A DNA stretch of 63,819 bases, filler included, from an uncultured archaeon (GTDB lineage: Archaea; Iainarchaeota; Iainarchaeia; Iainarchaeales; 1-14-0-10-31-34): the NCBI GenBank assembly GCA_964442255.1. It is 9 parts of 9 records of this genome, joined end to end, with 100 filler letters (N's around TTAATTAATTAA, not from the genome) between each part and the next. Parts side by side here need not be neighbours in the genome. Positions count along the whole stretch, not along the records: positions 27,616 to 34,475 come from CAYTYC010000038.1; 8 more parts are not named here. The stretch is one strand, 5' to 3'. The notes below the pieces were generated by a model that did no database searches, was not told the DNA's origin, and saw nothing but the letters and a program-made list of their open reading frames with translations. Each line of letters starts with the position of its first letter. Within the stretch, counting starts at the first letter, position 1. Positions 13,325 through 63,819 of this stretch are shown piece by piece. Position numbers and translations under genes: made by a program.

Positions 13325-13458
13325 TTGGCAATGACGATGTTAACACCTTCTGACCGGCTTAAGTGTGTGAGCGAAAGCGAGCTGGCGCCATGCGCAGTAT
13401 GGCATACTCTGCCACCGTGAGCAGACGGCGTGATGAATTAACTCAACCCTGAACCCAA
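13325..13458 (+). ncRNA. box C/D guide sRNA with a 76-nt hairpin insert between D' and C'
   Basis: C ATGACGA 13331-13337, 12-nt guide, D' CTGA 13350-13353, C' GTGATGA 13430-13436, 12-nt guide, D CTGA 13449-13452, TTGG/CCAA terminal stem. Confidence 0.7.
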
Positions 13459-30860: not shown

Positions 30861-30949
30861 GCTGTCATTTTCCGAGCGAAAGCGAGGAAATAACTACTAC
30901 AAAACGCAGTGAGGTAGTAGGGCACGCATATAAACTGGGCGTGACAGTT
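30861..30949 (+). repeat. REP-like multi-hairpin element upstream of the tRNA-Tyr leader
   Basis: CTGTCA/TGACAG closing stem; GAGCGAAAGCGAG and AACGCAGTGA loops. Confidence 0.55.
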
Positions 30950-31207
30950 TCCCGCCTTAGCATAGCAAACTTTTTCAAAAAAAGTTTGAACAAAAAAAGC
31001 TTTTTAAGAAACCTTGTAAATGCTTTGCGTCGTTAAAAAACCTTTCGGTTTTTTGACGCGTCGGAAACCTGCAGGTTTCCAACGTTACGAGGCCCCGCAA
31101 ACCTTAAAGTTTGCAAGGAAGCTTTAGCAAAAAAGCAAAAACCGGCTAACGCCGAAAACTTTTAGAAAAAGTTTGATCAAAATATGTGCTAAGGCAATGT
31201 ACTGCAA
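30950..31207 (+). other. tRNA-Tyr 5' leader: copy of the tRNA 5' end, hairpin element, antisense copy
   Basis: TCCCGCCTTAGCATAG at 30950-30965 equals 31208-31223; TGTGCTAAGGC at 31185-31195; the core is homologous to the tRNA-Pro intron. Confidence 0.8.
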
Positions 31208-31208
31208 T

Positions 31209-31428
31209 CCCGCCTTAGCATAGTAGCCAATGCGTCCGGCTGTAGTTGTTTCAACCGGTTTTTTTTTGAACCGGTGTGCTTTGCTTCAGGGCAAAGCGGG
31301 CGCATAAACCCGAAAGCGGCGGTGAGCGAGGCGAAAGCCGAGCCAGTGCCATACGCCAGTATGGCACGTTCCACTGCCGGGAACAGCCGGCAACCGGAAG
31401 ATCCCCGGTGCAAATCCGGGAGGCGGGA
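31209..31428 (+). tRNA. tRNA-Tyr(GTA) with a 147-nt intron at 37/38 (31246-31392)
   Basis: Acceptor CCCGCCT/AGGCGGG-A, D stem GCAT/ATGC, anticodon stem TCCGG/CCGGA, loop CTGTAG|A, T arm CCCGG-TGCAAAT-CCGGG. Confidence 0.85.
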
Positions 31429-31480
31429 TTTAGGCTTTTGAACGATAGTTTTATAATAACACTTTGTGTTACGCTATGTT

Positions 31481-31777
31481 ATGGAGTATGTTAGTTTCAA
31501 ATTAGATAAGCCTGTTTTGAAGCAGATAGAGAAGGGGATTAAGGAGTTCCATTACAGCACCAAATCAGACTTTTTAAGAGACGCTGTAAGGACAAAACTG
31601 CAGCAGCTTGAAGAGGACAGGGCCAAAAAGAAGGCCTGGGACGCGCTGTTCGCAGCAAGAGGCGTATTGAAGGGACAGGGAAAGGCAAAAACAGACGAAG
31701 AATTTAGGAAAATTACTGAGAAAGCAGCAGAGGAATACATTGAAAAATTGGAAAAGAAATTTTCTGCTCAAAAGTGA
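31481..31777 (+). CDS. ribbon-helix-helix (CopG-like) putative antitoxin
   Basis: VSFKLDK...YSTKSDFLRDAVR. Confidence 0.8.
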   Translation: MEYVSFKLDKPVLKQIEKGIKEFHYSTKSDFLRDAVRTKLQQLEEDRAKKKAWDALFAARGVLKGQGKAKTDEEFRKITEKAAEEYIEKLEKKFSAQK

Positions 31778-32187
31778 ATGTCTTCAGGCATTGCAATTTT
31801 TACAATATCTGCCAAAGCATCAAAGTGCCTGTCTCTTGTAACCATTACTGCTTTGTTGTCTCTCGCTAACACAGCATGCAGAACATCCTTAAAATGCGTT
31901 TCTTTGACAGAAGAAGAAATTTTTCGTGCCTGAGAAATTTGTTCATCAGAGAGAAAAACCTTAACAAGAATATCCTCAAATGGAGAAAAAAGCCCAGCAA
32001 TTCTTTCATCAGAATAATCAGATTTTAGCTCTTCCACAACCAAATCAGAAAACAAAACCTTACAATTGTTCTTTTGACAATTTTTCAAGAATTGGAAAGC
32101 AAAATCCCCCAAAGGCCTGATACTGTCTCTTCTGTCTTCAAAATAGTCCCGCCAGATTGCAGTATCCAGGTAAAACTTTTGCACCAT
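31768..32187 (-). CDS. PIN-domain (VapC-like) toxin
   Basis: YLDTAIW, VVEEL, DVLHAVLA, VTRDRHF. Confidence 0.87.
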   Translation of the reverse strand: MVQKFYLDTAIWRDYFEDRRDSIRPLGDFAFQFLKNCQKNNCKVLFSDLVVEELKSDYSDERIAGLFSPFEDILVKVFLSDEQISQARKISSSVKETHFKDVLHAVLARDNKAVMVTRDRHFDALADIVKIAMPEDIHF

Positions 32188-60196: not shown

Positions 60197-60540
60197 GAGC
60201 AAAGCGAAGGAGGTGGCATCTCAGTGCCGGCGGACGAAACCGCCAAACGCGGGCGAAGCGAGCAAATCTGCCTCAAGCGAAAGCGAGAGGCAGCCTCCCG
60301 GCACTCCCACCCGAAAGCATGGCACACTCCACTCCCGCGAGCAGGCGGGATTCCGCTGCCGGGAACAGCCGGCATACCGGACCTGCCCTATGGAATGGGC
60401 AAATGCAAACGCGTAGCGTGAGCAACAACCATGCGCTAGCATGGCTCCCTGCACTGCCGGCAGAAGCCGGCAACCGCGAGCGAAGCGAGCAACAACCATG
60501 CGCTAGCATGGCTCCCTGCACTGCCGGCAGAAGCCGGCAA
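60197..60540. repeat. GC-rich hairpin-module array abutting the tRNA-Pro 3' end
   Basis: 54-bp direct repeat at 60420-60473 and 60487-60540; GCGAAGC, CCATGCGCTAGCATGG and TGCCGGCAGAAGCCGGCA modules. Confidence 0.85.
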
Positions 60541-60541
60541 A

Positions 60542-60803
60542 TGGGGCCCCGGGGATTTGAACCCCGGTCTACACCACGTTGGAACGCTTTTTTCTTTTCC
60601 CACGGCTTTTCGCCGAAGGCGAGTTTTTTGATAAAACTTTTCCTTGCAAACCCAAAGGTTTGCGAGGCTCCGCAACGTTGGAAACCTGCGGGTTTCCGAC
60701 GCGTCGAAAAACCGAAGGTTTTTCAACGAAGCTTTGCTTTTACAAGGTTTCCAAAAAGTTTTTCCCCAAGGTGCAATGCTAGTCCAGGCTACACCAAGGC
60801 CCC
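60542..60803 (-). tRNA. tRNA-Pro(GGG) with a 187-nt BHB intron (60577-60763)
   Basis: GGGGCCT/GGGCCCC-A acceptor, GCACC/GGTGT anticodon stem, loop TTGGGG|T, BHB helix TTGG/CCAA with 3-nt bulges. Confidence 0.9.
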
Positions 60804-63673: not shown

Positions 63674-63819
63674 TGCCTGGCGAAACCGGCAAATGCGAGC
63701 AAACCTGCCTCCGGAGCAAAGCGAAGGAGGTGGCATCTCAGTGCCGGCGGACGAAACCGCCAAACGCGAGCGAAGCGAGCAACAACCATGCGCTAGCATG
63801 GCTCCCTGCACTGCCGGCA
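63674..63819. repeat. GC-rich hairpin-module array, same family and orientation as 60197-60540
   Basis: 63714-63768 is identical to 60197-60251, followed by the repeat unit of ~60475-60529. Confidence 0.88.

Follow-up and report, generated by a model that had tools for sequence, protein, structure and literature searches.

A probably composite tRNA-Tyr intron with a dispersed repeat at its 3' splice site in an uncultured Iainarchaeota archaeon

The tRNA-Tyr(GUA) gene of an uncultured archaeon of the Iainarchaeota is interrupted by an intron of 147 nt whose splice motif is imperfect and whose end recurs elsewhere in the genome, which raises the question how such an intron came into being and how it might be removed. 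The initial annotation had left two answers side by side, namely splicing by an endonuclease of relaxed specificity or a gene in decay. The reading favoured here, with a probability of roughly 0.6, is that the locus is the sole assembled and likely functional tRNA-Tyr gene, whose intron consists of a 79-nt intron with a complete splice motif and of a 68-nt repeat that inserted at the 3' junction, probably as single-stranded DNA, whereby the end of the repeat forms a one-mismatch motif predicted to be cut by a single-subunit EndA, with RtcB acting thereafter.

The tRNA-Tyr gene and its probably composite intron

The window analysed, 63,819 nucleotides in all, is a string of contigs from a host assembly of 1.28 Mb, which comprises 51 contigs and is 93.8% complete. 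The tRNA-Tyr(GUA) gene lies on its plus strand, whereby the 5' exon (31209-31245) includes the anticodon GTA at 31242-31244 and G37 at 31245, and the 3' exon (31393-31428) includes the T loop TGCAAAT, the C1:G72 pair being formed and A73 following. Joining both exons in a script yielded a clean 73-nt tRNA-Tyr(GTA) in ARAGORN, confirming the 147-nt intron at the canonical 37/38 position (31246-31392, plus strand) that had been annotated; its removal gives a complete cloverleaf with all stems intact. ARAGORN's own call for the locus, a tRNA-Asp(GUC) obtained by a 35/36 cut, was rejected, as it costs 13.7 kcal/mol and breaks the anticodon stem, and a separate tRNA-Asp is present. A second tRNA-Tyr, for which the initial annotation had advised to look, was found in the assembly neither by ARAGORN, Infernal and BLAST nor by an anticodon-arm scan, and the locus is the sole assembled tRNA-Tyr.

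The D loop reads AGTAGCCA, with A18 replacing G18, and hence does lack the GG as annotated; the G55 of the T loop had been overlooked. For comparison, 78 Tyr loci were collected, which after subtraction of 10 duplicates and 6 unresolved loci left 62 distinct resolved genes, a biased sample, as the search pattern was built from the D arm of this gene. Among these, all 49 genes without the GG carry G55 and all 13 genes with the GG carry T or C at position 55 (n=62, kin not being independent), a co-occurrence that may be read as an A18·G55 contact replacing the usual elbow contact; among the papers listed by a literature search, none on A18:G55 was found. A 37/38 intron of 21-258 nt is present in 52 of the 62 genes, and ten are intronless. 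In a tRNA-Tyr labelled as Micrarchaeota (locus L127), an apparent second insertion was seen in the T loop.

The intron folds far better than its shuffled versions (z -4.45; 0 of 200 as good). The earlier description of it as being made of repeat modules holds for the 3' 67-68 nt, which are a genomic repeat, but not for the 5' 79 nt, which are single-copy and for which blastn gave no significant second match in the genome (best E 0.034). The intron-terminal 19-mer CTGCCGGGAACAGCCGGCA occurs exactly at 31374-31392 and, just as had been noticed, at 60356-60374; the window holds two further copies at 3 mismatches, 0.02 copies being expected by chance and none of 100 shuffles reaching four, and five exact copies exist genome-wide. 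The single-copy part (31246-31324, plus strand), which is taken to be an older 79-nt intron, forms hairpins at 31254-31275 and 31278-31297 and leads into a fossil 3' splice motif (31314-31325, plus strand), in which 31314-31318 are the 5-bp h' partner of intron nucleotides 2-6, GCGG at 31319-31322 is a full partner of the exon CUGU and TG|A at 31323-31325 provides the bulge. The cassette, a three-hairpin repeat of family 'B' (31326-31393, plus strand), follows with a tandem-GA hairpin (31326-31343), a hairpin at 31346-31367 and a terminal hairpin (31375-31392), its last A being A38, whereby one A is ambiguous at either end. The present 3' splice strand (31380-31393, plus strand) is wholly derived from the cassette: 31380-31386 pairs with intron nucleotides 1-7, CCGG at 31387-31390 faces CUGU, and CA|A forms the bulge. 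The mismatch annotated for this central helix was identified as U35·C, the other three positions being paired.

A truncation scan of the intron revealed 31324 as the only point that gives four helix pairs, a next base A and a 5-bp h', and the cassette starts 2 nt past it. A complete internal splice motif was found in one of 65 Tyr introns, as compared to 0.38% of shuffled ones, and a fossil-like motif is absent from all 30 other cassette-like left flanks. Deletion of the 68 nt in a script restored the strict motif and made the splice-competent fold cheaper, at 3.0 instead of 6.7 kcal/mol. As the complete and sole fossil motif directly precedes the cassette and the deletion restores the strict motif, the cassette most likely entered immediately before or after A38, at what was then the 3' splice junction, and the intron is likely a composite of an older 79-nt intron and the 68-nt repeat. 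Replacement of GCGG-TG by the cassette end CCGG-CA would have given rise to the U35·C mismatch; among the relatives, true intron ends most often read GCGG-NN (27 of 52), and one central-helix mismatch occurs in 11 of the 52 related Tyr introns. A relative carrying the 79-nt pre-insertion allele was not found, an exact-pattern metagenome scan yielding 0 loci and a wider scan 26, none of them close. Reading of 31246-31392 revealed neither RUGAUGA nor CUGA of a box C/D guide, and Rfam 15 gave nothing above the gathering threshold for the intron, so that ribozyme and ωRNA readings were dropped.

In the 5' flank of the gene (30951-31208, plus strand), 15 nt of the tRNA 5' end are repeated directly at 30951-30965, an A/T-rich array of hairpins belongs to another repeat family, and an antisense stretch at 31185-31195 pairs with the copy and thereby masks it. 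A TATA-like hexamer at 30929-30934 precedes the copy, so that a leader of 258 nt on the precursor is possible. The 5'-end duplication is confined to this gene among the 62 Tyr genes; both tRNA-Gln genes show a shorter version of it, and tRNA 3'-end duplications from the T loop onward, with a hairpin module in between, were seen on contigs C17 (after Ser-TGA, Leu-GAG and Arg-TCT) and C31 (after Ala-CGC). Downstream of the gene (31466-32187), a ribbon-helix-helix-like gene and an opposite-strand PIN-like gene were recognised by eye, the latter matching no NCBIfam family, and further small toxin-antitoxin-like genes follow up to 34028.

The cassette family and its presumed movement

A covariance model of the 3' part of the intron defined the cassette as a unit of ~65 nt with three hairpins, and 36 matches to it were identified in this genome, 13 of which had trained the model; within the two modelled stems 7 of 14 pairs covary. 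Of the 36 matches, 22 lie at most 400 nt from a tRNA gene, a zone amounting to 3% of the genome, and the family is polar: all 21 tRNA-flanking copies (nine loci) point their terminal hairpin at the tRNA, eight of these loci doing so at a distance of 1-4 nt. The cassette is present in 21 of 60 relatives and in 33 of 140 genomes of the phylum, a viral scan for it gave 0, and among 28 loci of relatives read by eye 11 end within ~2 nt of a tRNA end, all facing the tRNA. In one Tyr locus (L065) a cassette has the antisense orientation, at a distance of 1 nt from the 5' splice site.

Within the window, an array of copies (60285-60540, plus strand; units at 60285-60351, 60352-60374, 60405-60473 and 60476-60540) runs antisense to tRNA-Pro(GGG) (60542-60803, minus strand) and ends at its 3' end, and a copy cut off by the contig end occupies 63766-63819 (plus strand). 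Further sites are a box C/D-like sRNA, the Cys intron and two proteins in frame. The copy in the sRNA (13367-13431, plus strand) is diverged, the same insertion being found in two relatives (L173, L177). In tRNA-Cys (contig C13:28582-28873), the cassette stops 7 nt before the 3' splice site of a 221-nt intron, and the helix is perfect. One in-frame variant is read through in a DNA polymerase II large subunit-like protein (contig C7:10803-10890, L141), recognised by its motif, and another forms part of the C-terminal tail of a ribosomal S19e-like protein (contig C24:12244-12310, L143); both resemble Rickettsia palindromic elements in this respect. A second cassette family with a possible pseudoknot was seen in the introns of Gln-TTG, Pro-TGG, Pro-CGG, Glu, Arg-TCT, Ser-GCT and Gly-CCC and in several 3' flanks, whereby its end hairpin is in some copies, on the opposite strand, a variant of the terminal hairpin described here. 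The 216-nt intron of tRNA-Trp (contig C26:9121-9408) holds A/T-rich repeat modules and C/D-box-like guides, with two central-helix mismatches.

As to the route by which the cassette moves, its loops are informative. The element strand shows 33 GNA triloops versus 2 on the other strand, GNYA and GNRA loops are equally frequent on it (14:14), UNCG is absent and loops are closed by C-G; words of the type GCGN(N)AGC, described in PMC13037366 as DNA mini-hairpins that are less stable as RNA, are enriched ~20-fold. Since this loop usage (GNA, GNNA, C-G closing, no UNCG, single strand) fits mini-hairpins of single-stranded DNA, a DNA route is favoured, and the cassette presumably moves as DNA, preferring tRNA cloverleaf edges. 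Helpers of the RAYT/IS200 or reverse transcriptase kind were rejected, as neither is associated with the cassette in the genome or across relatives: Y1 transposases occur in 5 of 21 cassette-positive versus 12 of 39 other relatives and reverse transcriptases in 3 of 21 versus 6 of 39, without tracking the cassette, and a one-contig, 99%-complete relative has ten cassette copies and neither enzyme. In this genome no match to a reverse transcriptase was obtained, the scores of its two Y1 genes either indicate IS200/IS605 types or stay below the cut-off, and no cassette was seen in their immediate flanks, the nearest weak match lying ~0.8 kb from the stand-alone Y1. This latter gene is a divergent Y1 (HUH) gene on contig C9 (L063:1459-1956) with flanking hairpins of its own, and its score does not reach the IS200 cut-off; at L062 there is a complete tnpA-tnpB element of the IS605 type, and the genome encodes a single tyrosine recombinase.

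It is possible, if rather unlikely, that the cassette arrived via RNA instead, whereby tRNA pieces cut by EndA or processed at their ends would be linked to cassette RNA, either through ligation or through a reverse transcriptase that jumps between templates, and then be written back into DNA, anatomy and splicing of the intron remaining unchanged. An RNA-templated route accounts for the geometry of the junctions just as well, as all four junction types lie 0-4 nt from processing sites, with sense copies at tRNA 5' ends and the 3' exon and antisense copies at 3' ends and the 5' exon; likewise, head-to-tail arrays exist, and EndA and RtcB are present. What counts against it is the reverse transcriptase distribution given above, together with the DNA mini-hairpin character of the loops, the lack of CCA between tRNA 3' ends and cassette and the occurrence of copies in coding genes and intergenic DNA.

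The cassette at this splice site could also be old. In that unlikely case it would have been inherited from an ancestor of the family, gene conversion with other copies in the genome having renewed it, and the fossil would be due to chance or to an older event. Cassettes do occur at the same site in family relatives, which allows inheritance plus gene conversion in place of a fresh insertion: among 64 other Tyr loci, matches to the family model end on A38 in four at E<0.05 (L147, L149, L125 and L119) and more weakly in two (L111 and L092), and the sRNA copy is common to family relatives too. However, none of these six introns holds a fossil motif, a terminal hairpin is missing at the intron end of the family members L016 and L077, and the cassette shares exact stretches of 31, 27 and 24 nt with its siblings in the genome.

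Predicted splicing of the enlarged intron

The mechanism proposed for the favoured reading would start from a 79-nt intron with the strict splice motif GCGG-TG|A, into whose 3' splice junction the 68-nt three-hairpin repeat would have inserted later, probably as single-stranded DNA, whereby the last bases of the repeat took over as a 3' splice motif with one mismatch. According to folding prediction, the old GCGG strand would then pair with the left arm of the terminal hairpin and hold this hairpin open: 31317-31324 of the fossil pairs with 31372-31379 (8 bp), and the terminal hairpin, suppressed by this pairing, has a probability of 0.0003 in the native intron versus a mean of 0.89 after randomising the fossil strand, 119 of 120 random 8-mers in its place making the splice fold costlier. 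The last loop of the cassette is predicted to pair with the first seven bases of the intron, which would place the right arm of the cassette opposite the anticodon loop, and the single-subunit EndA would cut at 37/38 before RtcB joins the exons. Pairing upstream of the cassette as a general rule for guiding it to its target was discarded, 8 bp being found only here and 0-7 bp at the other 53 copies. Likewise, selection of a best variant is unsupported, since other hairpin variants of the genome would splice more easily, those ending in GCGGCA giving a perfect helix at 1.6-4.3 kcal/mol in this intron.

Speaking against the favoured reading, a closed register (U33-A, G34-C, U35·G; P 0.96) is the lowest-energy structure predicted, and the splice-competent fold, at 6.7 kcal/mol, ranks 40th among the 52 Tyr introns (median 4.5, maximum 11.7). 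As the closed fold dominates and the cleavable one is minor, the enzyme would have to capture a minor conformer, as it would for the 12 of 51 other Tyr introns that are predicted with a costlier splice fold. The strict hBHBh' (3-4-3) arrangement, formed by the inferred 79-nt intron, is not reached by the present one, in which three of four helix pairs form and the 5' side is an internal loop; a relaxed motif, i.e., a 3-nt 3' bulge closed by the anticodon stem, helix and intron-internal helix, is possible at +6.7 kcal/mol, a cost that falls inside the range seen in related introns. When the 37/38 introns of this genome were parsed by hand, 16 of 21 showed a full helix and 5 of 21 a mismatched one, the pair at 35 being missing in four (elongator Met, Leu-UAG, Leu-CAA and Tyr) and Trp being without two pairs. 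Every Tyr intron with the mismatch found here closes with a terminal hairpin of 5 bp or more (7 of 7 versus 10 of 57 others, one intron under 25 nt being left out of this count).

The type of EndA, which the initial annotation had proposed to determine, is that of a single-unit, alpha4-like enzyme: one 170-aa gene (L001:1276-1788) is the only match in this genome, no second subunit was found, and exactly one match was obtained in 54 of 61 genomes. The protein aligns over its full length to the homotetrameric EndA of M. jannaschii, the only insertion relative to 1a79 (residues 3-168) being one residue near the N terminus, and hence an L1, L2 or L3 specificity-loop insertion is lacking. Tyr106 and His116 are kept, and Thr147 aligns to K334 of PDB 5x89 so that no Tyr-His-Lys triad is formed; in the catalytic Lys column, none of 30 aligned sequences (out of the 54 EndA found) has Lys. 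The genome also encodes one RtcB and an RNase P RNA. Splicing by a relaxed endonuclease, as had been suggested, is therefore the likelier of the two annotated options, given the single EndA, RtcB and the five mismatched introns, while the lack of a loop insertion implies that any relaxation is not of the described loop type; from need, the enzyme splicing at 37/38 would tolerate a 3-bp central helix. Counting against the favoured reading, alpha4 EndAs are stated to require a strict motif in PMC3239211. For DPANN archaea published work describes subunit type as a poor predictor of specificity, and PMC4307357 reports a verified cut in S. tokodaii tRNA-Met despite central-helix mismatches, with longer flanking helices.

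Continued use of the fossil motif is improbable. EndA would cut the 5' site in the old register, with its perfect helix and bulge, and after refolding of the RNA the 3' site in the cassette-derived half motif. The old register is still available without disruption of the anticodon stem and provides a canonical 5' bulge, but it costs 9.9 kcal/mol, the distal register 6.7; cutting at the old 3' site would leave the 3' exon with 68 extra nt, and other introns with the same mismatch hold no fossil motif. Still less probable is the annotated decay of the gene, with a working tRNA-Tyr hidden in the unassembled part of the genome. Such a pseudogene would agree with the incompleteness of the assembly, in which tRNA genes often lie near contig ends, and with the dominance of the closed register in the predicted ensemble. 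Nevertheless, the exons carry the commonest features of related Tyr genes, the splice fold is not the costliest among related introns, and the single-copy genes for elongator Met, Leu-UAG and Leu-CAA are mismatched at the same pair; as the sole tRNA-Tyr has intact stems and its missing GG is compensated by G55 across relatives, decay is unsupported, and the locus is a real gene that is likely functional. A mis-assembly that placed a repeat copy into the gene is barely credible, for although contig breaks and gaps elsewhere are caused by the repeat family, no exact stretch longer than 31 nt is shared with another copy, cassette middle and both junctions are unique, the cassette pairs with intron start and fossil strand alike, and cassettes end at the same base in other species.

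Relation to known systems and meaning of the locus

In its workings the intron resembles both a canonical archaeal tRNA intron of relaxed motif and a repeat of the REP/MITE type. With canonical 37/38 introns, as portrayed in PMC5829648, PMC3239211 and PMC4307357, it has in common the position, the 3-nt 3' bulge, the flanking helices and the presence of EndA and RtcB; it differs in that its 3' splice strand comes from a dispersed repeat, that an older motif lies 68 nt upstream and that the EndA is a single-unit enzyme without specificity loop or catalytic Lys. On the repeat side, multi-copy palindromes with conserved stems, as expected of REP elements, are seen for the cassette, and a cognate RAYT flanked by repeats is not. 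REP and REPIN elements bear a terminal GTAG or CGTC tetranucleotide. At neither cassette end was this tetranucleotide seen by eye in the alignment of 54 copies. The ends are unlike each other (GCGAG... and ...GGCAA), and the terminal inverted repeats and fixed target-site duplication of MITEs were not found: direct repeats of 13-25 nt flank the cassettes of a few relatives (L180, L188 and L199), and here at most one A is duplicated. What the cassette shares with REP/BIME/REPIN, MITE-like and Rickettsia palindromic elements, including those in PMC3184786, are short non-coding multi-hairpin units, tandem arrays, a hairpin signature on one strand and in-frame copies in proteins, whereas it has no linked RAYT and is strongly polar toward tRNA ends. 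As strict BHB, RAYT linkage and terminal inverted repeats are all lacking, it is a plain member of neither class.

That introns in several tRNA genes of a genome contain related sequences, as found here, has been described for intron transposition in Thermoproteales, for which action at the DNA level by an unknown mechanism was proposed (Fujishima et al. 2010, as cited in PMC4033280, PMC4090602 and bioRxiv 10.64898/2026.10.13.758758). In contrast to that case, the moving unit is here a cassette smaller than an intron, which enlarges an existing one, and it also occurs outside introns (both tRNA flanks, sRNA and coding genes) and in both orientations. In Caldiarchaeum, integration of a mobile element at tRNA-Thr was tied to changed intron content and a 5' tRNA fragment (PMC3293823); a 5' tRNA copy is likewise present at this locus (15 nt, 258 nt upstream), but that element measures 1.8 kb and includes a recombinase, whereas the cassette is non-coding and comprises 68 nt. 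A search of the accessible literature gave no paper on these introns or repeats, and a longest published intron length was not found in the accessible part of PMC4033280.

The mechanism by which sequences enter archaeal tRNA introns was called unknown by a 2014 review (PMC4090602), and a 2026 preprint reports that no general route was found in Asgard archaea (10.64898/2026.10.13.758758). For the growth of an archaeal tRNA intron, the present locus gives donor, target and junction at base resolution, and the 79-nt strict and 147-nt relaxed precursors are a defined substrate pair for an alpha4-like EndA without loop or catalytic lysine. Its interest to specialists lies in this base-resolved record of intron growth by a repeat that seeks tRNA edges. 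As a tentative and rather doubtful generalisation, Iainarchaeota may carry an undescribed class of miniature non-coding polar elements, which would be delivered to exact tRNA processing sites (5' end, 3' end and both splice sites) by a route independent of the Y1 transposases and reverse transcriptases detected in these genomes and whose terminal hairpin would substitute for a splice motif, thereby building and extending introns, with this gene preserving the state before and after.
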